Shown: positions 17,311 to 60,690 of the stretch, piece after piece
How the letters are laid out: every line of letters starts with the position of its first letter
Position numbering within the stretch: position 1 is the stretch's first letter
NCBI GenBank assembly: GCA_034439895.1
Contig: JAWXBF010000003.1
Location: forward strand, 6,819 to 70,818
Direction of reading: 5' to 3'
DNA from: Deltaproteobacteria bacterium
Lineage (GTDB): Bacteria > Myxococcota_A > Polyangia > Fen-1088
DNA length: 64,000 bases
The notes under the pieces: generated by a model
Told to the model about the DNA's origin: nothing
The model's database searches: none
What the model saw: the letters and a program-made list of their open reading frames with translations, nothing else
Program-made: the position numbers and the translations under genes

Positions 17311-18537
17311 TCAATATCGCTTGTAGAAGCGTTCCCAGGCCATCTTGTCGATGCCCGGAAGCGCGAAGAGCCGAACTTCGCTCATATTCGTTGTGTCGGA
17401 CTCGGTCAGCAAGATGCGACCGGAAACGGTGAGTGCGGGTTGCCCTTCTTCGGTGATTTCGACGCGCGACACCCCGCCTTCGGGCATGGGAGACGGGCAG
17501 GTGCAGATAAAGCCTTCTTCGGTGATGGTCGTAATTCGACAATCGACATCACCGTTCGAGCGGTGCCAACGTGCGGGGAGGTCAACCGTCTTGCGGTTTC
17601 CTTGCAGCAAGGAACTCGGGCGATTGATGCGTGCAGGCATGTGTTGCCAGGTAGGGTTCGCGCCGCCGAGGCTGTTGACGAATGACGGGATTAGCGGAAG
17701 CGTCTCCATGAGCGCGTCGGCTTCTCGATCATTTTGGATGGACGCGAGTTGGGTCAAGTCATGTGGAAGTAAGTATGGACAGTCTTCAATCAACTTGACG
17801 ATTTCGTCGGTTGCCACCATGACGTCGACGACGTTGCGATGTTCGCGTGCTGCTCCGGGCTCGTGGTGGTGGGCGATGGATTCACGCAACAGCGCCGAGA
17901 GATTCCACTTGGTTGCAACGAGTCCGCCGATCTGGACGTGGAATGAATCGACGACATCCATCCATTCCTGTGTGGTCAGATTGCCAGAGAATTTTCGCTC
18001 GATCAGTATTGTTTCTAGCCCCACGACAGCGACCAGACGGCCAATATCGTGAAGTAATCCGGCCATAAAGCCATGGTCTGCGTTTAATCGTCTGTAATAC
18101 GCCAGCGACTCTGCGATGATGGCGCTTGTCAGCGATTGACGCCAGATGGTTTGTCGCAGGATTGACAGGGGACTTGTCTGCATGACGGCATGGCCGAGCG
18201 TCGCGGCGATCGCGATTCGACATGCTTCGTCGGCTCCCAGGGTTGCGACCGCGCGCTCAACGGTGGATACCTCGACACCACTTCGTTTGAAGTGCACAGA
18301 ATTCGCAACACGCAGCATCGCGGCTGCAAGCGCCTGGTCCTTCTTGATGACGCCTGCGAGATCGGTCATTCGATACTCGCCGCTGCTCACCAATTGCCGC
18401 AGTTTCATGGCGACGGCGGGAAAGGGGGGAATGTCCAGCGTTCCCGTCTCCGCTTTTTGAGAAAGGTAGAGTCGAAGGTGATCCGCCGAGATCGGAACAG
18501 GGCTCTTGGGGGATAGCACGGTGTTCATGATGACCAC
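17311..18537 (-). CDS. HDOD-domain protein with a C-terminal, possibly PilZ-like, beta domain
   Basis: HDOD core (MLRVANSVHF...GLLHDIGRLV). The C-terminus carries R-rich and TITEEGF motifs that loosely resemble PilZ RxxxR...DxSxxG. Confidence 0.7.
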   Translation of the reverse strand: MVIMNTVLSPKSPVPISADHLRLYLSQKAETGTLDIPPFPAVAMKLRQLVSSGEYRMTDLAGVIKKDQALAAAMLRVANSVHFKRSGVEVSTVERAVATLGADEACRIAIAATLGHAVMQTSPLSILRQTIWRQSLTSAIIAESLAYYRRLNADHGFMAGLLHDIGRLVAVVGLETILIERKFSGNLTTQEWMDVVDSFHVQIGGLVATKWNLSALLRESIAHHHEPGAAREHRNVVDVMVATDEIVKLIEDCPYLLPHDLTQLASIQNDREADALMETLPLIPSFVNSLGGANPTWQHMPARINRPSSLLQGNRKTVDLPARWHRSNGDVDCRITTITEEGFICTCPSPMPEGGVSRVEITEEGQPALTVSGRILLTESDTTNMSEVRLFALPGIDKMAWERFYKRY

Positions 18538-18553
18538 AGCTCCATCGGCGGAA

Positions 18554-18871
18554 TCAGGGCACAGCCGAAGGGATCCGGCGCCGAATGTGGCGGGCAGCTT
18601 GCATCCGCTGGTTCAGCACGTGGCGCGCTCGGTCAAGGGCAGCCTGCCAGCGCGCGTCCCGGTCGTTGATCTCCGCAAGAACGGCCTGTCCTTCTCCCTC
18701 CACCGCACTGCTGTTCGCCATCACCTGTTGTAAGAGCGCGAGGCTCTCTTCGCGCGCTTCGGTCATCTGTTGCGCCAATGCAATCACGTCGCTCGGATCG
18801 GTCTCCCCATCGGGCGGCTCCGGGGTCGCTGCCAACACATCAAGCAACGCCTGCATGGCGAGCCCGTTCAT
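18554..18871 (-). CDS. small alpha-helical protein in the fliD-fliS operon, possibly a FliT-like chaperone
   Basis: Assigned by position only (immediately after fliS; 105 aa, acidic, helical). It has no diagnostic motif. Confidence 0.3.
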   Translation of the reverse strand: MNGLAMQALLDVLAATPEPPDGETDPSDVIALAQQMTEAREESLALLQQVMANSSAVEGEGQAVLAEINDRDARWQAALDRARHVLNQRMQAARHIRRRIPSAVP

Positions 18872-19242
18872 GCGGATCGTACCCTGGCTTCTGCGAAACC
18901 CGATTGAATGCCAGCGAGGATCGATTCGGCTTCAAGGATCGGTTCGATTTTCATCTTGACCGTAGCCTCGAGCAACCGTTCGCGCGCGTACTGGTAGAGG
19001 CGTGCCAGATTGTTGCAAACATCGGGTGCGGTCTTGTAATCGAGTGCACCGCGCAAGGCCCACAAAAGTTCAAGCGCGTGGGCGAGATGCGATCGCCCCG
19101 TGACTTGATCGTTGTTCTCGATGCACGTGCGTGCTTGCGAACAATCGCGCGAGAAACGAACGAAAACCTCGTCGAGTATACGCTCTGGCGTTGCTGAATC
19201 GAGAGAGACTTTTTTATAGGAACCAGCGGCACGGGCGTACAT
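18868..19242 (-). CDS. fliS: flagellar export chaperone FliS
   Basis: Size 124 aa with a FliS-like N-terminus (YARAAGSYKKVSLDSATPERIL...). It overlaps the fliD-operon neighbours. Confidence 0.8.
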   Translation of the reverse strand: MYARAAGSYKKVSLDSATPERILDEVFVRFSRDCSQARTCIENNDQVTGRSHLAHALELLWALRGALDYKTAPDVCNNLARLYQYARERLLEATVKMKIEPILEAESILAGIQSGFAEARVRSA

Positions 19243-19257
19243 GGATTCTCCTTGTTA

Positions 19258-20595
19258 TCAGAGCGAGCGAAGGTAGTTCGACTGGGCCTGCATGCGTGAG
19301 GTGATCTGTTCGAGGGCAAGAAACTGACGTTGCAACGACTCGCCTATCGAGGTTGCGCGACGCTCAACGCGAACAATCTGGTCGTCAAATCCTCGGATGG
19401 AACCGTTGATCGATTGTTGTTTGCTAACGAGGTGACCCGTTTGTTTACTCGGATCCGGATTGTATTGCGTCGAACCAACGCGCGTGAACTCGTCGACGAG
19501 TGCCACCAGGCCCGCGGCGAGTCCGTTGGCACCTGTGAATACGGCCGTGACAGCGGTGGGATCTGATTTGGCGATGGCATCAAAGACCTTCTCGTCGAGC
19601 TTTAACTTTCCGCCCGTGTCGAACTTGATGCCGAGCTGAACCGGCGAGACGTTGCCGGCCCCGTGGGAAAACTGCCGGGTGATGGCTGCGGACAACCGGC
19701 CCTGGAGCGAGCGAAAGGTTGAATCACCGAAGAAGCTGTTTTCGCCTTTTTTCGTGCCGTTGTAGGTGACCTGGCTGTTCACGATCTCGGCTGCGCCATT
19801 GTAGTCTTCGATGAGTGCCTTGAGCTTGGCCTTTTGTCCCTCAAGATCCGCCGTGACGTCGACCTTTGTTGCGGACTCTCCGACGGGTGTTTTCGCAACG
19901 GCGGTGAAGGTGACACCGGCTACAACGTCCGAAAACTCGTTGGTTGAACGCGTAATCGTGACACCGTTGAGTGTGATGCTGGCATCCACGGCGGCAGTTC
20001 GCTCAATGAGATCGAGCGTGGTTCCGCCTTCAACGAACGCAATCTGTTTGGCTGAGCCCGTCTCTTTTCCCGATATCGTAAGGTGGTAGTCGGTGCCGTC
20101 GTGCAAGACGCGGGCAATTACGCCGGTGACGTTGGTGTTGATGCGCGAAGCAATGGCATCAAGATTGTCGGCGCTTGTATAATTTACTGTCACGGGCGCA
20201 CCGGCACCTATCGTGATCTGAACGCTGCCATCGCCTGCGATACCGGCGGTATTTGATACGAAGCCCTTCGACTGGCTGGTGTGGGCCGTCGCCAGGTTGT
20301 TGACGAGCACGTCGAAACTTGCCGCGGTCGCGAGACTGGAAGCGGTGACACCGACGCGATCGGTGTTGCCGGATTTTGCGGAAAGGGCCTGGACTTCAAC
20401 GGGGGTGTCGAGTCCCTGCGCGTTGGTCTTGAGTGCCTTCAGGCGCGTGATCAGATTGCCGAGGGTCGAAAGACGCGTGTTCGCGGCGGTTTTGCGCTGG
20501 TTTAGCGTTGTAATCGGGGCCCGTTCAACCGCGATGAGCTGATCCACGATGGCCTGGGTATCAATGCCGGATGAGATGCCCGAAAACGAGATCAT
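19258..20595 (-). CDS. fliD: flagellar filament cap protein FliD (HAP2)
   Basis: N-terminus MISFSGISSGIDTQAIVDQLIAVERAPI and C-terminal heptads (ALEQITSRMQAQSNYL). Confidence 0.9.
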   Translation of the reverse strand: MISFSGISSGIDTQAIVDQLIAVERAPITTLNQRKTAANTRLSTLGNLITRLKALKTNAQGLDTPVEVQALSAKSGNTDRVGVTASSLATAASFDVLVNNLATAHTSQSKGFVSNTAGIAGDGSVQITIGAGAPVTVNYTSADNLDAIASRINTNVTGVIARVLHDGTDYHLTISGKETGSAKQIAFVEGGTTLDLIERTAAVDASITLNGVTITRSTNEFSDVVAGVTFTAVAKTPVGESATKVDVTADLEGQKAKLKALIEDYNGAAEIVNSQVTYNGTKKGENSFFGDSTFRSLQGRLSAAITRQFSHGAGNVSPVQLGIKFDTGGKLKLDEKVFDAIAKSDPTAVTAVFTGANGLAAGLVALVDEFTRVGSTQYNPDPSKQTGHLVSKQQSINGSIRGFDDQIVRVERRATSIGESLQRQFLALEQITSRMQAQSNYLRSL

Positions 20596-20638
20596 GTTTG
20601 ACCGCCTGCGCCTGGGGTTGGGGAAAGAAGGCCCGGGG

Positions 20639-20676
20639 AAAAAAAGAACGGGCGCCGGATGTGAACCCGGCGCCCG
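20639..20676 (-). terminator. Rho-independent terminator downstream of fliC
   Basis: A 10-bp perfect stem (CGGGCGCCGG / CCGGCGCCCG) with an 8-nt loop, followed on the minus strand by TTCTTTTTTT, 26 bp after the flagellin stop. Confidence 0.6.
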
Positions 20677-20701
20677 GAGGAACTCTCACGTTCGCTGCGG
20701 G

Positions 20702-21523
20702 TTAGCCGAGCAGCGACAAGGCCAGCGAAGGGAGCTGGTTGGCCTGTGCGAGGACCGAAACCGCAGCCTGTGACACGATTTGATTTCGTGTGAACTGAGC
20801 CGTTTCCTTGGCCACGTCCACATCGCGAATTCGCGAGTTGGCGGCCGACGCATTTTCGTGGGCGTTCGCGAGGTTCGAGACGGTGATGGAGAGGCGGTTT
20901 TGTGAGGCACCGATGTCGGCGCGTGTGGTCGACAGGGTCTCGATGGCCGTGTCGATGACTGCGAGGGCGCCTTGCGCGCCAGCTGCAGTACTGAAATCGG
21001 TGGCGGCGACGCCCAGGTCGGTAGCGGTTGTGGCACCGAAGGTCACCGTGACCACGTCGCCCGTCCCGCCCTGAATGCCGACCTGCATATCGATGGTCGC
21101 TCCCGCTGCCAGCATGTTGGTGCCGCTGAACTCGGTCACGTTCGCGATGCGGTCGATCTCCAGTTCGAGTGCAGCGCGTTCCGTTTCGACGTAACCGCGT
21201 TCCACGGTGCCGAGGGTGCCGTTGGCAGCTTGCATTGCGAGTTCGCGCATACGAACCAGGATTCCCGACTGTTCGTTCATCGCGCCTTCCGCGACCTGAA
21301 TCATCGAGATGCCGTCGTTCGCATTGCGTTCTGCCTGCGCCATGCTGCGGATGTCCGCCTTCAAGCCCTCGGAGATACCGAGGCCTGCAGCGTCGTCCGC
21401 CGCCTTGACGATGCGCATGCCCGATGCGAGGCGAGCGATGTTGTCGCCCAATTGTCCTTGAGCGCTGTTCAGGTGCCGCTGAGCGCTGAGGGACGCGGTG
21501 TTGGTATTCATTACGAGTGCCAT
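20702..21523 (-). CDS. fliC: flagellin
   Basis: N-terminus MALVMNTNTASLSAQRHLNSAQ; the conserved D0/D1 motifs; C-terminus NQIVSQAAVSVLAQANQLPSLALSLL. A strong SD (AAGGAG) precedes the internal ATG, which is therefore preferred over the longer ORF start. Confidence 0.9.
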   Translation of the reverse strand: MALVMNTNTASLSAQRHLNSAQGQLGDNIARLASGMRIVKAADDAAGLGISEGLKADIRSMAQAERNANDGISMIQVAEGAMNEQSGILVRMRELAMQAANGTLGTVERGYVETERAALELEIDRIANVTEFSGTNMLAAGATIDMQVGIQGGTGDVVTVTFGATTATDLGVAATDFSTAAGAQGALAVIDTAIETLSTTRADIGASQNRLSITVSNLANAHENASAANSRIRDVDVAKETAQFTRNQIVSQAAVSVLAQANQLPSLALSLLG

Positions 21524-21630
21524 TTTTTCTCCTTTTGTGATGGCGCTCTGTGCGCCCTTCAAGGAGATGGTTCGTCCAACCTCGGGAATCCTCTAGGGGG
21601 GAATTTGAGAAATTCACATTGCCCCTTGAA

Positions 21631-22503
21631 TTACCGGCCAAGTGCGATCGCAACGATGCGCTCAGCGACCGCGCGAGCGCTTTCCAACGCGGCGCTGGCT
21701 CGGGCGAAATCGGTTGCGGCGTCCACCGGATCGATTCCGATCGCCCGCTCTTGCATGCGGGCAAGTTCGACCTCGAATTCGCGGCGGGCGTTGTCAACGG
21801 CATCAAGCGCGGCCGATTGCGAACCGAGTTGGGTGCGGGTGTTTGCAACTTGATCGACGGCTGTTGATAGATCAGCCAGGTTCGCGCGAATCGCATCCCC
21901 ATCGTTGCCATTGAGTGAGGCGATGATGTTGTCGAGGGTTGTGAACACGTCAACCCCCGTGGCCGTCGTCAACGCTTCACCGGTGACGCCGAAGGTTCCG
22001 ACGTTCGCTTCGCTGGCTTCGATCTGTCGACGCGTACCATTGCCCGCATAGACGCCGTTGGCACCAAAGGGTGCAACGTTGCCCGCAGAACCTGCGAGCA
22101 GAAATTCTCCGTCGGGTCCTTGTGTGTTTGCGAGGCCCAGCATCTGAGCCCGCAAGGCTCGAACCTCCTCGGCGACTCCGGCGCGTTGGGCGGCGGTGTA
22201 GGTATCGTTGGCAGCCTGAACGGTCAGTTCTCGCACGCGGCTCAATCCCTCGCCGATACCCGAGAGTGCCCGATCAGTTTCTCCGAGCCGTTCGTTTGCA
22301 CGTGCGACGGCGTTGCCCCGTCGTTCGCTCAGGGTGTGGCGAACCTCGGCGCGCATTCCTTCAGCCCAATCCGTAACACCGTCGGACGGGCGATCCACGC
22401 GAACGCCGGTCTGGAGGGCATCGCTTGCCTCTTGCACCCGCGAGCGTTGACGAGAGGTCTGTTCCGAGGCCGTTTCGATCATTCGGGTTTCAGTAACACG
22501 CAT
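21631..22503 (-). CDS. flgL: flagellar hook-associated protein 3 FlgL
   Basis: Flagellin-like N and C termini (MRVTETRMIE...; ...RAVAERIVAIALG) and position after flgK. Confidence 0.8.
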   Translation of the reverse strand: MRVTETRMIETASEQTSRQRSRVQEASDALQTGVRVDRPSDGVTDWAEGMRAEVRHTLSERRGNAVARANERLGETDRALSGIGEGLSRVRELTVQAANDTYTAAQRAGVAEEVRALRAQMLGLANTQGPDGEFLLAGSAGNVAPFGANGVYAGNGTRRQIEASEANVGTFGVTGEALTTATGVDVFTTLDNIIASLNGNDGDAIRANLADLSTAVDQVANTRTQLGSQSAALDAVDNARREFEVELARMQERAIGIDPVDAATDFARASAALESARAVAERIVAIALGR

Positions 22504-22509
22504 GGCTTC

Positions 22510-23877
22510 TCACAGATTGGTGATGAGGAAATCGAGCATTTGGTCGACCGTGCCAATGAACCGTACGGCAGCTTCGGACGCATGTTGGTACTGAGAAAGG
22601 TTCGACGCTTCCTCGGCCAGACTTACGCCGGAGAGTCCGTCACGCAATCCAGCAAGAACCTCGGAACGGGCGAGTTCCAGCTCATGGGCACCTCGGGTGC
22701 TGGCAGCGGCCGCCCCGACGTTACCCAGCATGGTGATGGCCTGGTCGACAAACGTGCGGGTACCGTTACCCGCCACGGGCTGATCCTTCAAAGCCACGAG
22801 CTGGAGAAAGCCACTGTTATCTCCTGCGCCCGCGCCGAAAGTGGCCCCGGCCAATTTACTCGCGTCGGTGGCGATCTGCGTGTTGACGCTGAAAGCTGCA
22901 GCGGTTCCCGCCACCTGGGCCGGCTCATCAAACAAATCAAGACCCGTCGTGCCGTCTGGGGCCGCGCTGTTGCGATGAACCGCATTGATCTGCGTTGCCA
23001 TATCGAACGCGAGTTGGTCGAGTTCGGTGCTGGCCTGGGTCAAGGTTTGATCGCGGAAGGCGATCTCTCCACCGATCTTGCCTCCAGTGATACGATTGGT
23101 TACATCGTCGACATGGTTGCCATCCCGGAGCTCGATGCGCATGTCCCCTGTGGTGCTATCGGGGACGCCGACGATCTGGGCCGAACGGCCACCGTCGACC
23201 AGCATTCCCCCTCCGGGGACGACGATTCGCATTTGACCGTCGGAGTCGATTCTTGCCTGAGAGCCGATGATTTCCGCCAACCCCCGGGCGGCCTGGTCGC
23301 GTTTATCGGCGATCACCGGATCGTGATCAACCGCTAGCGCCCGGTTGGCGGCCGCCACCTGGGATGCGAGGCGTTCGGCCTCTCTGGCCATCGATTGAAT
23401 GCGCGCGTTGGTCTGAGAGCGTGAGGATGAAATGGCTCCGGCCGTAGTGGTGAAGGCGGTCGCCGTATCGTTCGCGCGCGACACCACGTCGGTGCGCAGG
23501 GCCGGATCAAGCGGAGAAGACGCGAGATCCAACAATCCTCCAAATAGGGCGGCGATGGCCTGAACCATATTACCCTGTGACGGCGCAACGCCCGCTTCGA
23601 GATTGGCAGTTGCGACCGAAAGGCTGCTGTACTGGCCGCGGCTGCTATCGGATGTGCGTTCACGCAACGAAAGCAGCTGATCATCAAATCGTTCGGGACC
23701 TTCGACGCGCACGCCACCAACGAGCGGCACGCCAAGCTCGGACTGCAAGTTGATACGTTGCCGCGAATAACCAACGGTATTGACGTTGGCGGTATTGCGG
23801 GCGGCAACAGCCACGCCAGCATTCTGCGCCACCATCGCGCCTGCACCCAGATCAAGAAGTCCCAATAGCCCAGACAT
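22510..23877 (-). CDS. flgK: flagellar hook-associated protein 1 FlgK
   Basis: N-terminus MSGLLGLLDLGAGAMVAQNAGVAVAARNTANVNTVGYSRQ and C-terminus QYQHASEAAVRFIGTVDQMLDFLI. Confidence 0.9.
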   Translation of the reverse strand: MSGLLGLLDLGAGAMVAQNAGVAVAARNTANVNTVGYSRQRINLQSELGVPLVGGVRVEGPERFDDQLLSLRERTSDSSRGQYSSLSVATANLEAGVAPSQGNMVQAIAALFGGLLDLASSPLDPALRTDVVSRANDTATAFTTTAGAISSSRSQTNARIQSMAREAERLASQVAAANRALAVDHDPVIADKRDQAARGLAEIIGSQARIDSDGQMRIVVPGGGMLVDGGRSAQIVGVPDSTTGDMRIELRDGNHVDDVTNRITGGKIGGEIAFRDQTLTQASTELDQLAFDMATQINAVHRNSAAPDGTTGLDLFDEPAQVAGTAAAFSVNTQIATDASKLAGATFGAGAGDNSGFLQLVALKDQPVAGNGTRTFVDQAITMLGNVGAAAASTRGAHELELARSEVLAGLRDGLSGVSLAEEASNLSQYQHASEAAVRFIGTVDQMLDFLITNL

Positions 23878-23891
23878 TTTGTCCTCCTTCG

Positions 23892-24311
23892 CTACAAGGC
23901 CTTGACCGTGCGCGCGGGTTGATAAGAACCCATCCGGGCACGGGCGTCATACGTTCCGGTTGGGCGGGTCATCCCGCGTACCTCGGCCATTGCGCTGACG
24001 GCATCCGCCAGCAGCAGTCGATTGGCTTCTGCGTTGGCGAGCACCCGCACTGCGGCTGCGCGAACCAGACGTCGTTTTTCCTCAAACACCGGTTCGAGGC
24101 TTTTGCGATAAGAACCGGCATCCTTGGAGAATCGAGCAAGCGTTTCACGCATTCGCTCGGACAAGAGCGCCTTTTCCGCGACCAGTGCAGGCAAGGCATC
24201 CACCTTCAAGGCAGAAACCGAAACACGTTCTTGCTCAAGCACGCTTTCGAGGGCGCGCGTGATCTCAAGCAAGGCGTCTGCGGTCTGATTGTGAAGGTCA
24301 GCGTTTTGCAC
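23892..24311 (-). CDS. flgN: flagellar chaperone FlgN-like
   Basis: Assigned by position (between flgM and flgK), size (139 aa) and helical composition. Confidence 0.5.
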   Translation of the reverse strand: MQNADLHNQTADALLEITRALESVLEQERVSVSALKVDALPALVAEKALLSERMRETLARFSKDAGSYRKSLEPVFEEKRRLVRAAAVRVLANAEANRLLLADAVSAMAEVRGMTRPTGTYDARARMGSYQPARTVKAL

Positions 24312-24313
24312 GT

Positions 24314-24607
24314 TTACTCCGGTTTGCCAAAGTGTGTGTTGCGCGCCGATTCGTCACTCAAGATGCGCTCAGCAAGTGCTGCCGTGTCGGTGTGATACCG
24401 ATTCGACTGTACTGCGACCTTCAATTCTTGAACCTTCTCTGCGCGTGCCGTCGCTACCCGATCGGAGATCGAGCTCACTTCGTCGACGGATGCGGCCACG
24501 ATGGCTCCACCGCTGTCGCCGGAGCCGGCCGGTGCCGGTACACCGCTTTCCGGTTTTTCACCCCGTGCGGGTCCGATTCGGTCGTTTGGTTGTCCCTGTA
24601 TGCGCAT
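24314..24607 (-). CDS. flgM: anti-sigma-28 factor FlgM
   Basis: A C-terminal sigma-28-binding helix (VDEVSSISDRVATARAEKVQELKVAVQSNRYHTD), 97 aa, with a good SD (AGAGGG). Confidence 0.75.
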   Translation of the reverse strand: MRIQGQPNDRIGPARGEKPESGVPAPAGSGDSGGAIVAASVDEVSSISDRVATARAEKVQELKVAVQSNRYHTDTAALAERILSDESARNTHFGKPE

Positions 24608-24629
24608 GCTTTTGCCCTCTATGTCGTGA

Positions 24630-25420: not shown

Positions 25421-25430
25421 GACGAACTCC

Positions 25431-26564: not shown

Positions 26565-26575
26565 GGCTTCCTCGC

Positions 26576-28541: not shown

Positions 28542-28571
28542 GATTGCTTCTCCTTTGTTCGTAAAACCAAG

Positions 28572-49083: not shown

Positions 49084-49100
49084 TGCGGAAAGGTTTTAAA

Positions 49101-53642: not shown

Positions 53643-54876
53643 GACTCTCCTTGGAGGGCAGTTGGATCTCGAAGCGGGCCCCGGTTTCACTCGGACAAAA
53701 TCTCACGTCGCCACCAGACTGACGCGCGAGGCGTCTTGCGGTGACGAGGCCAAGACCACTGCCGTCGGGCCGGGTTGTCACAAACGGCTCGAACAGTGCC
53801 TTGCGACGGTCGGGCGCAACGCCTTCCCCGCTGTCCTGCAGGGCCACCGTGATGCCAGCGTCCGACGCCGTTGCCTCGATTCGCAACTGGCCACCGGTTG
53901 GCATCGCGAGAACCGCGTTGTCGATGAGGTTCCACAAAATATGCTGGAAATCAGCGGCGGATGCCCATGCCGACGTTCCGTCCGCAATGTTCGTGGCGAC
54001 CTTGATGCCGTTCAAGCGCGGCTCGAAGAGTGCAATCGCAATGTCAATCTCCTTTCGAACGGCCAGAGTTTCCGGCTCCGACGCGATGTTGCCGCTGCGG
54101 TGGGCGCGCCTGACCGCCGCAATGATGGTCTCCATCCTCGAAGCGGTATCGGACCCCCGTTTCAAAAAACGTGAAGCGCCATCTTTGAGCTCGTCCGAGC
54201 CCTTTTCGCCAATCAATCGATCCAACTGTCGGTGTGCGCTGACGAGCGCCGCAAGCGGATTGTTCAGGCTGTGGGCGATGCCCGCCGACAGTTCGCCGAT
54301 GAGCGCGCGCCGACTGGCCTGTGACAGGCGTGTGCCCATCACCCTGAGTTCGTGGTTTTTCTCGGCCAGTTCACGGTTTCGCATTTCGAGATCGGATACC
54401 GCTTTTTCCAGCTCCGAATGAGCCGAAAAAAGGGCGAGATGCTTTGAGATGAGTTCACGTTCGAGCATCTGCCGCTCGGTGATGTCGCGGGCGATGCATG
54501 CGGCCAGCGGCCCCGTGTTACTGTGTTCGATATGCGCGACGGTCAAGGCAACCGTCACGGGGTAACCATCGATTCGAGCGATGGCTATTTCGTCGTGCAA
54601 GCCCTGACGTTCAATCACCCGTGTGGCACGTTCTCCAGCATCGCAATCATCACTCGGTAGAAACAAGCTGGCCGCAGGTTGGCCCACCAAGACAGCCATT
54701 GAGCTGCCAGTCAGATCCTCCAGCCGACTGTTGGCGCTAACGATGCGCATATCGGAACGCGATACGGCGAACGCAGCTTCGGACGTATGCTCGAAGAGCA
54801 ATCCGAAGATTTTCCTGTCGATATCGCGGATCGGCGCCGATGCGTGCGTTTGCATCCAGATTCTTGCTTCGGCCAT
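53632..54876 (-). CDS. PAS-domain sensor histidine kinase (cytoplasmic)
   Basis: An N-terminal PAS region, H-box SAGIAHSLNNPLAAL, N box WNLIDNAV, DSGEGV and GSGLGLVTARRLARQSGG. Confidence 0.8.
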   Translation of the reverse strand: MAEARIWMQTHASAPIRDIDRKIFGLLFEHTSEAAFAVSRSDMRIVSANSRLEDLTGSSMAVLVGQPAASLFLPSDDCDAGERATRVIERQGLHDEIAIARIDGYPVTVALTVAHIEHSNTGPLAACIARDITERQMLERELISKHLALFSAHSELEKAVSDLEMRNRELAEKNHELRVMGTRLSQASRRALIGELSAGIAHSLNNPLAALVSAHRQLDRLIGEKGSDELKDGASRFLKRGSDTASRMETIIAAVRRAHRSGNIASEPETLAVRKEIDIAIALFEPRLNGIKVATNIADGTSAWASAADFQHILWNLIDNAVLAMPTGGQLRIEATASDAGITVALQDSGEGVAPDRRKALFEPFVTTRPDGSGLGLVTARRLARQSGGDVRFCPSETGARFEIQLPSKESHAA

Positions 54877-54970: not shown

Positions 54971-56545
54971 TTGGGGACGGTGAGGCGTAGTTTAGGCGAA
55001 GGAGAACCCGAAGAGACCACACAGACCGATGGTCCGGTCCTGGAGCGTGGGCGTTTGCGTTCCGATCGGCCCCGGCTGGTGGTCATCGGGGGGATTGCAA
55101 AGGGCCGACAATTTGCCATTGCCGACGACGGTGCCACGATCGGGCGTTCCTCAGAAGCGACGGTAACGATCGAGGATCGTCGGCTGTCACGGGTGCACGC
55201 CCGCATCGTGACGACGCGGCCCGGCACCTGGATTCTCGAAGACCTCGATAGTAAAAACGGCACGATCGTCAACGGTGAAGCCGTCAAACGCAAGACGCTT
55301 TCCTATGGTGACGAGATTCGCATCGGCGACTCGGCCTTGATCTTCACGCACCATAATCCTGTCGAAGAACAGATCTTTCAGCGCGAGCGGATGGAACTTT
55401 TGGGTCGTCTGGGTGCGGGCGTTGCGCATGACTTCAACAATTTGCTCAGTGCTGCACGTGCAAGCATCGAGTTTCTTGATTCGCTTCCGCCAAACTCCCG
55501 GATCGACGAACCCGATATCCTTGAATGCCGTCGCGACGCGCTGAGCGCGCTCTCGCAAGCCACGACCCTGTCTGCGCGTTTGCTTGGGATGAGCCGGCAA
55601 CAGGCCTATGTTCTCGGTCGCGTGGATGTTGCGGATCTTTGTCGAGATGCGGTCGATCTGTTAAAGCGCACCGTCACGCGATCGATCGCGATCGATTTGC
55701 AGACAGAGCCGAATCTGTTCACGATGGGTGATCGGGGTCAGTTGCATCAAGTGATCATGAATCTGGGCGTCAATGCGCGTGACGCCATGCCGGCGGGGGG
55801 CAAGTTGACGGTTTCTTGTCGACGCGGTAGCGCGCTTGACTATCCGGTTTCCGGTCGCACCGACGGTGACGTTGTGATTCTCAGCGTTTCAGATACTGGC
55901 CAGGGTATGGACGAGGAGACCCGGGAAAATGCCTTTGATCCCTTCTTCTCGACGAAAACCGACCGCGGCGGTACGGGACTTGGCCTCGCCACCGTGCTTG
56001 AGATCGTAAAGTACCACGGCGGTTCGATTGACCTACAATCCGAGCTTGCCAAAGGAACAATGTTTCGCATCTTCCTACCGGCGCCACAAGATGTCGTCGC
56101 TACGGGTCGTGACACGTATGCCGAGTTGCCGTCCCTTGATCGGGCTCGCAGCATCAGCTCGGAATCCATGGTGCGGACGGCTCTTGTGGTGGACGACAAT
56201 CCCGTGATGCGCAGAAGCCTCGCTCGCCTCTTGAAGGCGCAGGGTTTTGAGGTGACGCTTGCCACCAACGGGCAGGAAGGTGTCGAGAGGTTCAGTGAAA
56301 GTCGTCCCGACTTCGTGCTACTCGATTTCGATCTGCCAATTCTGTCGGGTGCCAAGGTTTTTGAACGGCTGCGAACGCTCGATCCCGATATTCCAATCAT
56401 CCTCATGTCGGGTCACGCGACCGCGACGATCGAGCGCATGTCGCAGTGGTTCGGTGATCCGCCACTGTTTCTGCAAAAGCCTTATGGCGCACAGGATCTG
56501 CGCAATGCCATCAGCGAAGTTCTTACCCGAAAAGGTCGGGGATGA
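54971..56545 (+). CDS. FHA-domain / histidine kinase / receiver hybrid (FHA-HisKA-HATPase-REC)
   Basis: FHA (ATIGRSSEATVTIEDRRLSRVHARI...EDLDSKNGTIVNGE...YGDEIRIG); H-box GAGVAHDFNNLLSA; N box MNLGVNARDA; DTGQGM; GGTGLGLATVLEIVKYHGG; C-terminal REC (ALVVDDNPVM, VLLDFDLPILSG, IILMSGH). Confidence 0.85.
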   Translation: MGTVRRSLGEGEPEETTQTDGPVLERGRLRSDRPRLVVIGGIAKGRQFAIADDGATIGRSSEATVTIEDRRLSRVHARIVTTRPGTWILEDLDSKNGTIVNGEAVKRKTLSYGDEIRIGDSALIFTHHNPVEEQIFQRERMELLGRLGAGVAHDFNNLLSAARASIEFLDSLPPNSRIDEPDILECRRDALSALSQATTLSARLLGMSRQQAYVLGRVDVADLCRDAVDLLKRTVTRSIAIDLQTEPNLFTMGDRGQLHQVIMNLGVNARDAMPAGGKLTVSCRRGSALDYPVSGRTDGDVVILSVSDTGQGMDEETRENAFDPFFSTKTDRGGTGLGLATVLEIVKYHGGSIDLQSELAKGTMFRIFLPAPQDVVATGRDTYAELPSLDRARSISSESMVRTALVVDDNPVMRRSLARLLKAQGFEVTLATNGQEGVERFSESRPDFVLLDFDLPILSGAKVFERLRTLDPDIPIILMSGHATATIERMSQWFGDPPLFLQKPYGAQDLRNAISEVLTRKGRG

Positions 56546-58599
56546 CTGCACCCACTGGCAGCGGCGGAATGCAACCTGACGCCGGACCCGCAGGGCTTTT
56601 TGGCAGTCAGGTTGGGCCGTATCGAATCCGTTCGTTGCTAGGCGAAGGCGGCATGGGGGTTGTGTATCTCGCCGAGCACGAGCTGATCGGTCGAAAAGCG
56701 GCGATCAAGATGTTGGCGGCGGACGTGGCCGGCGATTCAGAGGCCGTGTCACGTTTCTTCCTGGAAGCGCGCACGGTCAATCAGATAAGGCACCCCAATA
56801 TCGTTGATGTGACGGATCTCGGACATCACGACACTCAGCCGTACATCGTGATGGAGTATCTCGAGGGCGAAACATTGGCCGATCGCCTGAAGCGGGCGGG
56901 GCCGATGGATTCAACCGTCGCATTGAAAGTCACGCGACAGGTGGCGTCTGCCCTTGGTGCGGTCCATGAGCATGGACTGGTTCATCGCGATCTCAAGCCC
57001 GCCAATATTTTCATATGCGCCCATCCGGATTACCCCGACTTCACGAAGGTTCTTGATTTCGGGATCGCGAAGCTTGTCTCGGTCCATGAAGACGTTGGCC
57101 ACAAGACCCGCGCCGGTGCGTTGTTGGGAACACCGCAATACATGTCACCCGAGCAATGTTTGGGTCAAAGGGATATTGATCCGCGCAGTGACATCTACTC
57201 GCTTGGTGTTGTTTTGTACGCCATGCTGACGGGACGGTTGCCGTTCGCCAATCGTCCGTTTGGCCAGTTGATTGTGGCGCATGTGATGGAGGTACCTGCG
57301 TCACCGCATCAAGTGAATTCGGGGGTTGCCCCCGTCTTGAGTGCACTCGTGATGAAAATGCTCGAAAAGCGACGCGAAGAACGGCCTGCGAACATGTTCG
57401 TCTTGCGTGATTCGATTGATTCCTTGCTGGGCATAGAACACGAAATTCCGGGCGTCCCTATCATGTCGCTCGGCAGCGATGGCACCGGTCCCATTGGTCT
57501 TGCGGCGGCCGCCTTTGCCGATGAAGGCCATACCGCCGAAATGCGGGCGCGGTTGCTGGCAGTCAATCTCGAAGCCACCGAGACCTCCGCAGGAAGTTTC
57601 CGAGACGAAGATTTCGATTCCGATACTTCTGGCTCGCCCGGTACACCTGAACCGACTTCGGCCGTAGTCGGTGGTGCCAGCCGTGCACTTCCCGATCACG
57701 CGACGCTTGTGGAACGGGTTGGTGACTTCATCGACGAACGTCTCGCCGTCGAAAAGATACCCTTGCCGGTGCTGTCGCGGGCATCGGCGCAATGCCTCGA
57801 ACTGATGCGCTTGCCGGGCTTTTCGTTTGCGGATCTTTCCGAGGCCATGATGCGTGAACCGAACCTCGCTCGCCGAATCGTTGCACAAGCGAATCGAGTG
57901 GTGGGTAGCGCATCCACTCAGCGCGTGGTCGGCATCGCGCAGGCGGTTCGTCGGATTGGCGCTGCCGGCCTGCAGCGGACTCTGGTCGAAATGGCAGCTC
58001 GTCCGGCGTTCTGTCCACCGAATTCTCGTTTTGCCCAGGCACTCAAGCGTCCCTGGCACCATGCAATTGCAACCGCGCTGCTGGCGGAACGCATAGGCTC
58101 AAATGCGCAACTGCCGCAGCTTCAACCCATCACGGAATCGCTCTACATCGCGGGCCTCTTGCACTCGATCGGGCGTTGCGTCCTGACGAATTTCCTCTTG
58201 ACCAGTGAACGCCGGATCGCCCGACGCTATGATCTACCCCGTTTACCCTGGGCAGCCTTGCTCGACGCTGCGGATGCCGCGTCGATTCGCGTTTCGGTTG
58301 CCGTCGCACGGGGTTGGAACTTGCCCGAGGACGTCGTGGGTATGTTGGCATCGTGTGGCCTGGTTGGAAGTCGAACCGACAATGGCGCCGCGGCTCCTGC
58401 GGCTGCGGTGGTACTCCGCCTCGCACACGGGATTGCACTTCGCGAAGGGTTCGTGCTTCGTGACGAGGACAAATCCGGTGTATCGAACGACATTCGCGCG
58501 AGCCGAATGCGTCTTGGCCTCGATGAATCCGTGATCGATCGAATGCTTTTCGATCTCCAGAATCACGTGGCTCGACTCGCACGCACGCGCGGCGAGTGA
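56542..58599 (+). CDS. Ser/Thr protein kinase (Hanks type) fused to a C-terminal HDOD domain
   Basis: Kinase motifs (GEGGMGVVYLAEH, AIKML, HRDLKPANIF, DFGIAK, TPQYMSPEQ). A long linker leads to an HDOD domain (IVAQANRVVGSAS...IAGLLHSIGRCVL). The start overlaps the stop of the previous gene (ATGA). Confidence 0.85.
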   Translation: MTAPTGSGGMQPDAGPAGLFGSQVGPYRIRSLLGEGGMGVVYLAEHELIGRKAAIKMLAADVAGDSEAVSRFFLEARTVNQIRHPNIVDVTDLGHHDTQPYIVMEYLEGETLADRLKRAGPMDSTVALKVTRQVASALGAVHEHGLVHRDLKPANIFICAHPDYPDFTKVLDFGIAKLVSVHEDVGHKTRAGALLGTPQYMSPEQCLGQRDIDPRSDIYSLGVVLYAMLTGRLPFANRPFGQLIVAHVMEVPASPHQVNSGVAPVLSALVMKMLEKRREERPANMFVLRDSIDSLLGIEHEIPGVPIMSLGSDGTGPIGLAAAAFADEGHTAEMRARLLAVNLEATETSAGSFRDEDFDSDTSGSPGTPEPTSAVVGGASRALPDHATLVERVGDFIDERLAVEKIPLPVLSRASAQCLELMRLPGFSFADLSEAMMREPNLARRIVAQANRVVGSASTQRVVGIAQAVRRIGAAGLQRTLVEMAARPAFCPPNSRFAQALKRPWHHAIATALLAERIGSNAQLPQLQPITESLYIAGLLHSIGRCVLTNFLLTSERRIARRYDLPRLPWAALLDAADAASIRVSVAVARGWNLPEDVVGMLASCGLVGSRTDNGAAAPAAAVVLRLAHGIALREGFVLRDEDKSGVSNDIRASRMRLGLDESVIDRMLFDLQNHVARLARTRGE

Positions 58600-58616
58600 G
58601 CTACCGGGGAATTGAC

Positions 58617-59117
58617 CTACTGAACGACGAACTCAGCGAAGTACAGATGGCTGATGGCCCCGCCACCAAGTGCCTTGTCAATGCGGGCAAGGATCGCTTC
58701 GCCAATCGTATTTTTGCCGCTCTCGCCGAGGGTATCGGCGACCGCCAAGCTTGACAGGTATCGCAATATGTCATCCCGGATGGCGACTTTTTTGGTTTCC
58801 AATTTGGCCTTTGCCCCGTCGTTTCGCAGCTCCAGATCAAACTTCGCCTTGAGATAGCGGGCGCGCCCCTGTTCGTTCAGGTTCACGACGAAGGGATCAA
58901 GGGTAACCATGGGCTTGATCTCGGATTCAGGCCCGGGCCCGTGGTCCTTGGGCAACGATTTCTCCACCTCGGTCACCTTGTGTGAAATCCCCATCGTCTG
59001 AACCACGATGAAAGCCGAAACTGCGATGTTTACGATGCCCAAAATCATCCCAAGTTTGGAGCCACCTGCTTTGGGGACGGCGTCTGATGGTGTTTCTGCT
59101 TTTTTTTCTTCGGACAT
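58617..59117 (-). CDS. fliL: flagellar basal-body-associated protein FliL
   Basis: A single N-terminal TM and a FliL core (TLDPFVVNLNEQGRARYLKAKFDLEL...ILRYLSS). Confidence 0.8.
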   Translation of the reverse strand: MSEEKKAETPSDAVPKAGGSKLGMILGIVNIAVSAFIVVQTMGISHKVTEVEKSLPKDHGPGPESEIKPMVTLDPFVVNLNEQGRARYLKAKFDLELRNDGAKAKLETKKVAIRDDILRYLSSLAVADTLGESGKNTIGEAILARIDKALGGGAISHLYFAEFVVQ

Positions 59118-59175
59118 GATAACCCGCTATGCAGATTGAATCGTCTGGAATTCCGCGAACTTGAGTGGAACCGTG

Positions 59176-60690
59176 CTATCCGGCTGCACTGATTGGCGCC
59201 ACAATCGGATCGGCCGCGCAAACGCGATTGCGGCCAGACTCCTTTGCCCGGTACATCGCGGCGTCGGCTGCGGCAATCAGGGCCGGAATCGAAACCGTTT
59301 GACCTGCGCCGACCGTGGCGCAACCGAAGGATGCCGTCAAGGGAATGGGCGTTCCGTCTTGCGTTTGAACGGTGAGCTGCGAAACCCGCTCTCGTACCCG
59401 TTCTGCGACGATGAGGGCGCCCGGCGTCGGCGTTTCGGGCAACACCACCACGAACTCTTCACCGCCCCAGCGGGCCGGGAGATCGCGCGGGCGGAAGTTC
59501 TTCAAGAGAAGTCCACCGATCGCTTTCAGGACCGCATCGCCGACGAGGTGTCCGTGTTTGTCGTTGACCTTTTTGAAGTGATCCACGTCCACCATGATGA
59601 TGCTCAGCGGCGTTTTGGTGATGCGCGCTTTGGTCAGCTCGTGTTCAATGAACGTCTCGAACCGATTGCGATTGGCCAACCCAGTCAAGAGATCAGTTAC
59701 CGACTTTCCCTCGGCTTTTTCAGCCCGATCGGTCAGCGAGAGCATCGTTTCGGTCATCTGGATTTCGGTCGAAACAGCAGATAGCAGGAGGGCCTCGCGG
59801 GCTTCTTCCAGGATCTCGTCGATGGTTTCTTGCGAGTCCATCGGTGCTTCGAGCAGCGTGAACAACTCGCCCATTGTGTCGTGTACCCTGGCGAGCAACT
59901 CGTCAAACTTTTCGTCCGTCAAGTTGAGAATCTTTGAGGCGAACGCCCGTGCGTGCCGTGTGGGCAACGCGCGATCAGGCGCCAGCCAGATGTCGGTGAC
60001 GTGGTTTGCGGTCGCGACGATGCGCGAGAGCGTCACCACGCTGGGCTCCGTCTTGTCGTCCGTGATCCCGAACTTGTGACTGTGGGCAATGATCATTGCG
60101 AACTGGGCAGGCAGTCTCCATTTTTCAGCGAGCCAGGCGCCCACTTCGGCGTGATCCGAGCCGAATAACTCCGTTTCCTGCGCGCTCAATTCGCCATGGT
60201 TGTGAATGGATTTCTCAAGGATCGCGCCGTACGTCGGCTCAATCGTTGCCAGGGTCAAGATGCCGATATCCTGCATCAATCCCGCCAAGAAGGCCTCTTC
60301 CAGATCGCGAACTCCGACCAGGGCAGCGAGGTGCCGCGAAACGAGCCCCGACAAAGCAGATCGTTTCCAGTACGCGCGAAACCAGGGCGTTTGAGCTGCC
60401 TTGACCGTCCGTGCAAGCGTAAATGACAGCGCCATGGCGCGCAAGGAGTTGAGCCCCAGCATCGCAACGGCGTGTGATACGGTTGTGACCTCGCGGCGAA
60501 CGCCTAGCATGGGCGAGTTGGCCATCTTGAGAACCTTGGCGGACAGGGCGGCGTCCGTCGTGATGGTGGACACCACGTCGCGAACGTTGGGTTCCGCTTT
60601 TTGGCATTGCTCGAGCACCTTCATGGTGACCGCGGGCAACGTGGGCATACTCTTGGCCTGGGTGAGTCTCGTTTGTAGTGCCGGATCCAT
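59176..60690 (-). CDS. HDOD-GGDEF protein (diguanylate cyclase with an N-terminal HDOD domain)
   Basis: HDOD (AKVLKMANSPMLGVRREVTTVSHAVAMLG...AGLMQDIG). GGDEF with an I-site (RPRD-LPARW-GGEEF) and the preceding DVDHFKKVND. Confidence 0.85.
   Translation of the reverse strand: MDPALQTRLTQAKSMPTLPAVTMKVLEQCQKAEPNVRDVVSTITTDAALSAKVLKMANSPMLGVRREVTTVSHAVAMLGLNSLRAMALSFTLARTVKAAQTPWFRAYWKRSALSGLVSRHLAALVGVRDLEEAFLAGLMQDIGILTLATIEPTYGAILEKSIHNHGELSAQETELFGSDHAEVGAWLAEKWRLPAQFAMIIAHSHKFGITDDKTEPSVVTLSRIVATANHVTDIWLAPDRALPTRHARAFASKILNLTDEKFDELLARVHDTMGELFTLLEAPMDSQETIDEILEEAREALLLSAVSTEIQMTETMLSLTDRAEKAEGKSVTDLLTGLANRNRFETFIEHELTKARITKTPLSIIMVDVDHFKKVNDKHGHLVGDAVLKAIGGLLLKNFRPRDLPARWGGEEFVVVLPETPTPGALIVAERVRERVSQLTVQTQDGTPIPLTASFGCATVGAGQTVSIPALIAAADAAMYRAKESGRNRVCAADPIVAPISAAG

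Follow-up and report, generated by a model that had tools for sequence, protein, structure and literature searches.

Several HDOD proteins are known regulators of motility. GsmR (Xanthomonas), Cj0248 (Campylobacter), SadB (Pseudomonas), PSPTO_4229, PFL_0554 and PFL_5871 all have motility phenotypes (PMC11004494, PMC11813219) and alter either flagellar synthesis or swimming (PMC11004494, PMC11813219, PMC6543031, PMC12075610). The genetic link between HDOD proteins and motility is, therefore, already published and not new here, though none of these four papers reports a cluster of HDOD genes at a flagellar locus. Overexpression of PSPTO_4229, a stand-alone HDOD protein, abolishes swimming, an effect exerted via a surface predicted to interact with proteins (PMC11813219). 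SadB acts as an adaptor in AmrZ proteolysis and does so with no ligand bound in the pocket of its HDOD domain, which weakens a general model of ligand sensing by the domain (PMC12075610). DVU0330, which retains the HD residues, has weak phosphodiesterase activity against bis-pNPP and GsmR has no c-di-GMP hydrolysis activity (PMC4114195), while a role as a pGpG hydrolase was proposed for HDOD from domain co-occurrence (PMC2952852). The view taken in a preliminary description of the DNA analysed here, that the biochemical function of HDOD is not established, is for the most part correct but overlooks the work on SadB and DVU0330.

Polar flagellates control their flagellar genes through the sigma-54 two-component systems FlrB/FlrC (FleS/FleR). 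Here we describe a locus with both HDOD genes and a regulatory arrangement of this kind. It lies in a 64,000-nucleotide stretch of DNA (the window) from an uncultured Myxococcota-like bacterium, the sequence of which is known solely from metagenomes.

The flagellar gene cluster and the stand-alone HDOD protein

The window contains a complete flagellar gene cluster on the minus strand (18868..49083; Pfam). Read from 49083 to 18868, the order is flgB, flgC, fliE-K, flgD, flgE, fliM-P, fliR, flhB, flhA, flhF, flhG, fliA, flgF-L, fliC (20702-21523), fliD and fliS, fliQ having been left out of the scan. The gene for fliL (58617..59117, minus strand; Pfam FliL 77 bits) is detached from the rest of the cluster, and no motAB genes are present in the window. 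The sequence TGGCACGGCGCTTGCT (49100..49115, minus strand), 17 bp upstream of flgB, matches the sigma-54 promoter consensus perfectly and is the only match without mismatches in the window. Neither a sigma-54 nor a sigma-28 promoter was seen before any of the four HDOD genes.

Searching all six-frame ORFs with a local HDOD HMM (E<=10) gave exactly four HDOD proteins: an HDOD with a PilZ-fold domain, a stand-alone HDOD, a Ser/Thr kinase-HDOD (STK-HDOD) and an HDOD-GGDEF. These are the four of the preliminary description, at the same coordinates and with the same architectures, and all score far above the gathering score for PF08668 (Pfam). No fusion of HDOD to REC or YbaK, as found in GsmR and SadB respectively, was detected by Pfam in the four. 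The pairwise identity among the HDOD domains is only 21-32%, implying that they are ancient paralogues rather than recent duplicates. When compared with PDB 3HC1, the di-metal ligands are retained to very different extents, with 6/6 in the stand-alone HDOD, 5/6 in HDOD-PilZ, 3/6 in HDOD-GGDEF and 2/6 in STK-HDOD.

The stand-alone HDOD (51252..52166, plus strand; 304 aa; Pfam HDOD residues 19-213, 185 bits; HD 36 bits) aligns to 3HC1 with an E-value of 1.7e-28. 3HC1, an HDOD protein from Geobacter sulfurreducens with a di-iron site, is of the same size and fold family and is only about 27-30% identical. Its five histidine ligands and one aspartate ligand are all aligned and present in the stand-alone HDOD (H116, H146, D147, H187, H211 and H212), and these residues are essentially invariant among 113 orthologues (43-97% identity). 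In SadB, on the other hand, the metal ligands have been lost. The stand-alone HDOD is probably metal-dependent. Neither a function nor a flagellar context is known for 3HC1, so the match is informative about structure and not about mechanism.

The neighbours of this gene are regulatory. Convergent with it is a REC-histidine kinase (52182..53690, minus strand; Pfam Response_reg 22-122, HATPase_c 389-496), and upstream of this in the same operon is a PAS-histidine kinase in an FlrB/FleS-like position (53632..54876, minus strand; Pfam PAS_9, HisKA, HATPase_c). Directly upstream of flgB there is a sigma-54 enhancer-binding protein lacking a receiver domain (49208..50239, minus strand; Pfam Sigma54_activat, AAA_lid_14, HTH_8), in which the GAFTGA and Walker A motifs are present. 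It corresponds to residues 140-474 of a 477-aa, REC-containing orthologue in the lineage L174 (58% identity), and alignment to this orthologue revealed no REC remnant upstream of the window's gene. The block of HDOD, REC-histidine kinase and PAS-histidine kinase recurs in L174 (HDOD 62% identical) and in a second lineage, L176 (48%), and in both it adjoins the sigma-54 activator (48% identical in L176) and flgBC-fliEFG. The PAS-histidine kinase has orthologues in the same position in both (46 and 40% identity in L174 and L176, respectively), as does the REC-histidine kinase, with a full-length counterpart in L174 (40%) and a partial match in L176. The internal arrangement of the block is kept, although in the window its orientation to the activator is reversed. 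No flagellar genes were found within 9 kb of the orthologues in L175 (59%) and L177 (45%). With two of the five contexts in this small sample showing no flagellar genes, the association of the cassette with flagella is frequent rather than universal. The 190-aa FHA-domain protein encoded 11 bp upstream of the HDOD gene (50668..51240, plus strand; Pfam FHA 99-165) is lineage-specific, with no counterpart in L174, L175, L176 or L177.

As in FlrB/FlrC, a PAS-histidine kinase adjoins a sigma-54 activator followed by sigma-54-dependent basal-body genes, and flhF, flhG and fliA are all present. The cassette differs in having the additional REC-histidine kinase and HDOD protein and in the form of its activator. 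Since this has no receiver domain, a simple phosphotransfer from FlrB to FlrC cannot apply as it stands. NCBIfam matches to the regulators were generic and sub-threshold (FlbD, for example, scored 308 bits against a cut-off of 750). It would seem likely that the stand-alone HDOD provides an accessory input to an FlrB/FlrC-like switch that turns on the basal-body genes. Most likely it would bind, and perhaps hydrolyse, a small phosphorylated ligand at the metal site, with the ligand state then being passed to the adjacent kinases.

The three HDOD fusion proteins

Conservation of the flagellar neighbourhood is confined to one of the four HDOD proteins, the stand-alone protein with its intact metal site. 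For the other three the flagellar neighbours, fliS and fliL, are gone once the identity of the orthologues falls to about 50%, so that neither of the adjacencies stressed in the preliminary description is conserved.

HDOD-PilZ (17311..18537, minus strand; Pfam HDOD residues 36-227, 137 bits) is likely to start at the ATG at 18528, which gives a protein of 405 aa, matching its orthologues. It was thought to sit at the tail of the fliD-fliS operon. It is indeed in this array, which runs fliD-fliS-unk105-HDOD/PilZ-CAP, but it is not the last gene, being followed after 3 bp by a CAP/SCP-domain protein (16270..17307, minus strand; Pfam CAP E 5e-6). The 105-aa protein that precedes it (18554..18871, minus strand) has no Pfam or NCBIfam match and occupies the position usually held by FliT. 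Both these neighbours have counterparts in the same position in L168, 62% identical for the 105-aa protein and 50% for the CAP/SCP protein. The fliS gene is kept beside an orthologue of HDOD-PilZ at 64% identity and is absent at 50, 47 and 42%. In the HDOD domain the first histidine of the metal site is replaced with glutamine. The only Pfam match of the last 106 residues is to PilZ, below threshold (E 0.023, 15.5 bits against a cut-off of 22.5). An AlphaFold model (pLDDT 89.8) searched with Foldseek against the PDB returned PilZ-domain proteins at all of ranks 1-48 (TM to query 0.49-0.76, best about 0.7), so that the label "PilZ-like" holds as a description of the fold. The domain has the six-stranded barrel and C-terminal helix of YcgR, MotI/DgrA and MapZ, with TM values of 0.67-0.76 to the YcgR, MotI and MapZ structures. 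Unlike in those proteins, neither the RxxxR motif nor the D/N of D/NxSxxG is conserved in the family of this domain. A class of PilZ-fold adaptors without c-di-GMP binding is also known. The domain rarely occurs apart from HDOD: of 45 cluster representatives, about 30 contain an HDOD domain. The fused architecture amounts to only a few dozen clusters at 50% identity.

HDOD-GGDEF (59176..60690, minus strand; Pfam HDOD 15-206, 176 bits; GGDEF 331-489, 160 bits) has an intact active-site motif, GGEEF, and an I-site, RPRD (RxxD). The HDOD domain is degenerate and the substitutions R110, Q140 and S204 are invariant in eight sequences, the window's protein and seven orthologues. As previously noted, the gene is upstream of fliL and co-oriented with it, the gap being 58 bp. 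The architecture itself is known, an early census having listed 28 GGDEF-only proteins with an HDOD partner (PMC2952852). What distinguishes the window's protein is its position directly upstream of fliL, which was seen in this species only; no fliL was found beside the orthologues at 50 and 46% identity.

STK-HDOD (56542..58599, plus strand; Pkinase 27-286, 173 bits; HDOD 408-602, 73 bits) retains the motifs of a Hanks-type kinase (AAIK, HRDLKPAN, DFG and SPE) in front of a strongly degenerate HDOD domain. This domain has no close relative, the best matches being 27-36% identical, and the sole full-length relative of the protein in GTDB genomes is 35% identical, from a Sandaracinaceae MAG. 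Its start is overlapped by 4 bp by the stop of an FHA-histidine kinase-REC hybrid (54971..56545, plus strand; Pfam FHA 56-119, HATPase_c, Response_reg) with sub-threshold NCBIfam matches to EspA and EspC of Myxococcus. The Esp system is built from both hybrid and Ser/Thr kinases (PMC4320627), and in Myxococcus xanthus Esp, as here, an FHA-bearing hybrid histidine kinase is paired with a Hanks-type Ser/Thr kinase. The scores, however, fall far short of the equivalog cut-offs (168 where 1400 is required), the window's Ser/Thr kinase carries an HDOD domain, and the context is flagellar where that of Esp is developmental.

With moderate confidence, we read the locus as a composite and not as one system. 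An older component comprises the stand-alone HDOD, the two histidine kinases and the sigma-54 activator beside the sigma-54-dependent flgB-flgC-fliE-fliF-fliG operon, and to this conserved regulatory cassette three lineage-specific HDOD fusions have been added. From the domain content, motif states and gene order, together with its conservation, we infer that in each fusion a metal-site-degenerate HDOD would serve as a regulatory or protein-interaction module on a different output. One output would be an active diguanylate cyclase, whose gene appears to be co-transcribed with fliL. Another would be an active Ser/Thr kinase with translational coupling to the FHA-hybrid histidine kinase, in an Esp-like arrangement, and the third, in the late fliD-fliS operon, a PilZ-fold domain without c-di-GMP-binding motifs. 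Along with the canonical PilZ, EAL and GGDEF-EAL proteins on the other flank, the fusions may plausibly connect flagellar gene expression and motor function to signalling by c-di-GMP, His-Asp and phospho-Thr.

HDOD gene density and alternative explanations

The density of HDOD genes had been taken as a distinguishing property of the locus. Four in 43 kb compares with one in 79 loci (about 1.25 Mb) that were chosen by kinase similarity. The Poisson probability of at least four in one given 43.4-kb region is 3e-7 to 2e-3 if an 8-Mb genome is assumed to contain 10-100 such genes. The local density is, then, well above random expectation, but the enrichment is of signalling genes in general and not of HDOD alone. 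About 16 signalling proteins lie in two islands and only four are HDOD proteins. PilZ, EAL and GGDEF-EAL proteins are also encoded there, as are a Ser/Thr kinase, two FHA proteins and six histidine kinases. The left island (8331..15345, plus strand; Pfam) consists of a canonical PilZ protein (RREYKR/DISRGG), a histidine kinase, a REC-EAL and a REC-GGDEF-EAL hybrid with GGDEF and RxxD motifs. The three fusions all lie within c-di-GMP, two-component and Ser/Thr-phospho signalling islands.

HDOD genes habitually cluster together in this group. Related MAGs have three or four in stretches of 9-11 kb. In L176 these adjoin flagellar genes, but in L177 (four in 9 kb, next to dnaG and rpoD) and L140 (three in 11 kb) they do not; L006 and L008 have two each. 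Chance or genomic habit in an HDOD-rich lineage might then account for three of the genes, or even all four, with no specific flagellar meaning. The clusters away from flagellar genes in L177, L140, L006 and L008 point in this direction, as does the loss of the fliS and fliL adjacencies, and with some 100 HDOD genes in 5-8 Mb several clusters of four in 43 kb would be expected somewhere in the genome. Even with 100 genes, however, the probability for this given region is about 2e-3. Three lineages, with identities as low as 48%, keep the stand-alone cassette next to flgB-fliG, and L176 independently has four HDOD genes right at the same flagellar operon, none of them orthologous to the window's three fusions. 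We regard this explanation as unlikely, if still a serious one.

It is rather unlikely that the HDOD proteins are catalytic HD-type hydrolases, acting as c-di-GMP or pGpG phosphodiesterases to complete turnover beside the EAL and GGDEF genes. The complete set of H...HD...H...HH ligands in the stand-alone HDOD, the weak activity of DVU0330 (PMC4114195), the earlier pGpG proposal (PMC2952852) and the presence in the window of two GGDEF proteins, two EAL proteins and one canonical PilZ are all consistent with such a role. It would fit one protein at most, as three of the four lack the full set; Pfam reported no HD_5 (HD-GYP) match for any of the four, and hydrolysis of c-di-GMP is not known for any HDOD, GsmR being without this activity (PMC4114195).

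That the four form one brake or clutch system by binding to structural components of the flagellum (switch, stator, FliL or export chaperones) is improbable: the operon-like placement beside fliS and fliL, the PilZ fold shared with the motility regulators YcgR and MotI and the effect of PSPTO_4229 on swimming (PMC11813219) would favour it, but these placements are not conserved, the domains differ in sequence (only 21-32% identity) and pocket chemistry, motAB is missing from the window and the conserved partners of the stand-alone HDOD are kinases and a transcription activator rather than structural proteins. A motor-binding set of this kind was implied by the preliminary description.

The flagellar cluster and its flanking signalling islands

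The window, with a G+C content of ~60%, carries a single unbroken flagellar gene cluster on the minus strand. This runs from 49083 down to 18868 in the order flgB, flgC, fliE, fliF, fliG, fliH, fliI, fliJ, fliK, flgD, flgE, fliM, fliN, fliO, fliP, fliR, flhB, flhA, flhF, flhG, fliA, flgF, flgG, flgA, flgH, flgI, flgJ, flgN, flgK, flgL, fliC, fliD and fliS; the scan covered flagellar genes other than fliQ. Neither motAB nor che genes are found within the 64 kb. Signalling genes flank the cluster on either side. The left island (8.3–18.5 kb) encodes a canonical PilZ protein, two histidine kinases, REC-EAL, REC-GGDEF-EAL, a CAP-domain protein and HDOD-PilZ. The right island (49.2–60.7 kb) encodes a sigma-54 activator, an FHA protein, a stand-alone HDOD, REC-HK, PAS-HK, FHA-HK-REC, STK-HDOD, FliL and HDOD-GGDEF. 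As the same gene order is seen on contigs of three independent metagenome assemblies, the arrangement is not an assembly artefact.

The organism is uncultured and the sequence is found on metagenome contigs only. Several lines point to a Myxococcota-like source. The kinase domain and the HDOD proteins have their best relatives in Myxococcota MAGs (Sandaracinaceae, Kofleriaceae, Haliangiales, "Myxococcales" and "Deltaproteobacteria"), and the PilZ protein falls in a Geobacter/Myxococcus paralogue family. Flagellar genes have also been reported in uncultured Myxococcota (bioRxiv 10.1101/2021.07.06.451402).

Several features of individual genes were noted. The canonical stand-alone PilZ protein (8331–8771, plus strand) has RRxxxR and DxSxxG motifs and belongs to paralogue family TIGR02266. 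The flagellin gene fliC is at 20702–21523 on the minus strand (MALVMNTNTASLSAQ...LPSLALSLLG); a 453-residue ORF at 20592–21953 (minus) was rejected as spurious, with fliC lying beneath it in another frame. Between fliC and fliD is a strong terminator (20676–20649) with a 12-bp stem, ten G-C pairs and a T-run. The FlgJ-like protein (24644–25420, minus) combines a rod-binding domain with Peptidase_M23 in place of the muramidase domain. The fliO ORF (37006–38058, minus) is unusually long at 350 residues as called, with the FliO domain confined to residues 214–274, and its true start may be further downstream. HDOD-GGDEF is directly preceded, likewise on the minus strand, by genes for two proteins, a multicopper oxidase and one of outer-membrane efflux (60770–63644), which look unrelated to the signalling island.

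Metal sites and partner domains of the HDOD proteins

The preliminary description had named four HDOD proteins around this locus together with their partner domains, and these were confirmed. HDOD-PilZ (17311–18537, minus), the stand-alone HDOD (51252–52166, plus), STK-HDOD (56542–58599, plus) and HDOD-GGDEF (59176–60690, minus) score 137, 185, 73 and 176 bits respectively against Pfam PF08668, all far above the gathering score of 22.9 bits, and a local HDOD profile run against all six frames of the window matched these four and no others. Pairwise identity among them is merely 21–32%. None of the four matches Pfam HD_5 (E ≤ 0.01), the HD-GYP family, their matches being to HDOD and the generic HD family only; HD_5 does occur in neighbours of the stand-alone HDOD orthologues at two of the loci fetched for comparison, L176 and L177. 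Unlike the SadB family, where a YbaK-like domain is fused to HDOD, none of the four has a match to an N-terminal YbaK-like domain.

The di-metal ligands were assessed by aligning the four domains to 3HC1, the di-iron HDOD protein of Geobacter sulfurreducens, in which the ligands are five histidines and one aspartate (H, HD, H, HH; PMC12075610). All six are present in the stand-alone HDOD, the only one of the four with a complete 3HC1-type site. HDOD-PilZ retains five, with a glutamine in place of the first histidine, HDOD-GGDEF three, with R110, Q140 and S204 at three of the histidine positions, and STK-HDOD only two, the majority having gone. The six ligands of the stand-alone HDOD are essentially invariant across 113 orthologues (43–97% identity), and R110, Q140 and S204 are equally invariant in eight HDOD-GGDEF sequences (the window protein and seven orthologues). 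Given this conservation on the one hand and the fixed substitutions on the other, the stand-alone HDOD probably binds metal, and the other three have old, stable, non-metal pockets.

The partner domains of two of the fusions look functional, judging from their motifs. HDOD-GGDEF scores 169 bits against TIGR00254 (cut-off 37.4) and has a GG(D/E)EF active site, reading GGEEF, with an RxxD I-site five residues upstream (RPRDLPARWGGEEF at residues 400–413). In STK-HDOD all the Hanks motifs are present (AAIK53, HRDLKPAN148, DFG172 and SPE202) and the Pkinase score is 173 bits.

The C-terminus of HDOD-PilZ, first described as PilZ-like, earns that name by its fold though not by its sequence score, which at 15.5 bits (E 0.023) is below the PF07238 gathering score of 22.5. 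Structure prediction clearly supports a PilZ fold: the AlphaFold model has six strands and one helix (pLDDT 89.8), and in a Foldseek search of the PDB ranks 1–48 were all PilZ-domain proteins, with a best TM-score to the query of ~0.7. The c-di-GMP-binding motifs RxxxR and (D/N)xSxxG are absent from the window protein, which reads RK...TITEEG. Amongst 27 family members R315 is found in eight and the second arginine in none, the D/N position is taken by Y, A, T or F, and all that is kept is the glycine (25 of 27) and a Thr, Ala or Ser. Because the canonical binding residues are not conserved in the family, we treat the domain as a putative PilZ-fold adaptor and not as a proven c-di-GMP receptor. 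A profile of the domain found 45 clusters among 1.84 billion representatives, ~30 of them HDOD fusions of roughly 390–430 residues. HDOD with a non-canonical PilZ fold and Ser/Thr kinase with HDOD are documented here as two rare fusions.

HDOD density and gene context in related loci

The high density of HDOD genes seen initially also stood up: there are four in 43 kb, against one in ~1.25 Mb of loci that had been collected for an unrelated purpose, and by a Poisson estimate four in this particular region would be unlikely even with 100 HDOD genes per genome. Clusters are found elsewhere, however. In L176 four HDOD genes fall within 10 kb next to a flagellar operon, and those other than the stand-alone HDOD are not orthologues of the window's genes. 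L177 has four in 9 kb with no flagellar genes, including an HDOD-PilZ-like homologue of the 17311–18537 protein. At a third fetched locus, L140, a stretch of 11 kb contains three HDOD domains. In these lineages, therefore, HDOD genes generally sit together and alongside genes for REC, kinase and HD-GYP proteins, a habit not specific to the window. An operon of PAS-sensor kinase, REC-HDOD and REC-HD-GYP (HD_5) is common to L176 (2185–6976) and L177 (143–4560), which are from two distant MAGs; in both it adjoins the stand-alone HDOD orthologue, and it may represent a further conserved module with HDOD.

Two components make up the region. One is a conserved cassette of flagellar regulators, in which one HDOD probably depends on metal; the other comprises three HDOD fusions that are specific to this lineage and have degenerate sites. 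Both are embedded in wider islands of signalling genes of the c-di-GMP, two-component and Ser/Thr kinds. The clustering itself was confirmed, and its interpretation as a link between HDOD and flagellar genes is partly supported: the stand-alone HDOD lies with its cassette by flgB in L174 and L176, but the adjacencies of the fusions to fliS and fliL are lost at ~50% identity or less.

For HDOD-PilZ, a relative at 64% identity (L168) retains the array fliS, an unknown 105-residue gene, HDOD-PilZ and CAP, while homologues at 50, 47 and 42% are in unrelated contexts, one directly after a large Ser/Thr kinase gene and the others adjoining a HAD hydrolase. In the window the CAP/SCP-domain gene (16270–17307, minus) and the 105-residue gene (18554–18871, minus) flank HDOD-PilZ, positions kept in L168. 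At locus L006 (1002–5728) the homologue at 47% identity starts 8 bp after the gene for a 1174-residue Ser/Thr kinase, which, together with the STK-HDOD fusions of the window and of locus L008, hints at a recurrent link between HDOD and Ser/Thr kinases in this group.

A conserved operon of HDOD-GGDEF with fliL was rejected, since the orthologue at 50% identity has no fliL and those at 46% have a prolyl isomerase gene on one side and dnaE on the other. When metagenomes were scanned with full-length HDOD-GGDEF, matches to GGDEF alone predominated overwhelmingly; the only one that looked full-length, in L140, proved to consist of REC-GGDEF and, after it, an HDOD of its own. The sole full-length relative found for STK-HDOD, at 35% identity, is from a Sandaracinaceae MAG in the GTDB collection; its neighbours include a second HDOD gene and one for PilZ-DnaJ, and flagellar genes are absent. 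A search with its HDOD half gave only remote matches (27–36% identity) and did not recover the window protein itself, showing divergence of this half and giving no usable context. Searches with sigma-54 and sigma-28 consensus patterns and reading of the intergenic regions gave no convincing flagellar promoter before the HDOD genes, and the sigma-28 pattern matched no more frequently than in shuffles.

The stand-alone HDOD cassette and possible phospho-Thr inputs

The HDOD domain is widespread in bacterial signalling; its role in biochemical terms is unsettled, and knock-outs alter motility in several species. The initial statement that it has no established biochemical function holds for the most part, the known biochemistry being thin, but published work exists. 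Motility phenotypes have been published for GsmR, Cj0248, SadB, PSPTO_4229, PFL_0554 and PFL_5871 (PMC11004494, PMC11813219); SadB is a proteolysis adaptor for which the pocket ligand is not needed (PMC12075610); and DVU0330, which keeps the HD residues, has weak phosphodiesterase activity, while GsmR has none (PMC4114195). A 2010 study counted fusions of HDOD with GGDEF and with EAL and suggested a role in pGpG hydrolysis (PMC2952852). The association of HDOD with the flagellum is known already, and this locus is a variant of it. A non-exhaustive literature search found no description of an HDOD cluster at a flagellar locus or of the conserved cassette of HDOD, REC-HK, PAS-HK and activator.

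In L174 (62% identity) and L176 (48%) the stand-alone HDOD is convergent with the same REC-HK/PAS-HK operon, which adjoins the sigma-54 activator and then flgB, flgC, fliE, fliF and fliG. In the window the HDOD/REC-HK/PAS-HK block as a whole faces the other way with respect to the activator, and is otherwise intact. The orthologues in L175 and L177 have no flagellar genes nearby. The cassette has no equivalog-level match in NCBIfam. In the FlrB/FlrC type of system a sensor kinase and a receiver-bearing activator control sigma-54 flagellar promoters. Here kinases are present, as are an activator with GAFTGA (49208–50239, minus) adjoining flgB and a perfect sigma-54 promoter consensus just upstream of flgB (49100–49115, minus). 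However, the activator has no receiver domain, nor a remnant of one upstream, whereas its orthologues in L174 and L176 (470–477 residues) have a REC domain. A one-mismatch copy of the promoter lies just upstream of fliM (39339–39354, minus).

With its fully conserved metal site and its recurrent partnership with two HKs, a sigma-54 activator and basal-body genes, this one HDOD orthogroup is set apart. The cassette is the part most worth pursuing. Questions about its metal, its ligand and its partner kinase make it a concrete, testable entry point, more useful than a general statement of HDOD genes near flagella. The practical value is limited as the organism is uncultured.

In the window an FHA gene ends 11 bp before the stand-alone HDOD gene, and the FHA-HK-REC gene shares its last 4 bp with the beginning of STK-HDOD. 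A conserved pairing of FHA with HDOD was rejected, since no FHA counterpart is found upstream of the stand-alone HDOD in L174–L177, where that position is taken by unrelated genes for putative secreted proteins or lipoproteins, or by one for a REC protein. We infer that the window lineage may have added phospho-Thr inputs onto an ancestral His-Asp flagellar switch; this would be a flagellar regulon wired to phospho-Thr signalling in a Myxococcota-like lineage. The likeness to the Esp system of Myxococcus (PMC4320627) is architectural only, with FHA, HK and REC and a partner Ser/Thr kinase; the scores against the EspA and EspC models, 168 and 154 bits respectively, are far below the equivalog cut-offs, which are 1400 and 1200.

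A broader reading, which we consider rather unlikely as a whole, is that the stand-alone HDOD orthogroup, with its invariant di-metal site and its place convergent with REC-HK/PAS-HK and beside the activator and flgB, would be an integral, so far unrecognised part of the hierarchy of flagellar transcription in those Myxococcota-like bacteria that are flagellated. A small molecule gating expression of the basal-body genes would be sensed or hydrolysed at the metal site, and the window lineage would have rewired this from His-Asp to phospho-Thr control. Pointing to such rewiring are the activator without its receiver, the FHA gene inserted before the HDOD gene and the added operon of FHA-hybrid kinase and STK-HDOD.

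Beyond the right end of the window, at 21111–22058 of the fetched locus L001, is a third FHA-HK-REC hybrid kinase paralogue, separated by a few kb from the genes for the multicopper oxidase and outer-membrane efflux protein that come before it.
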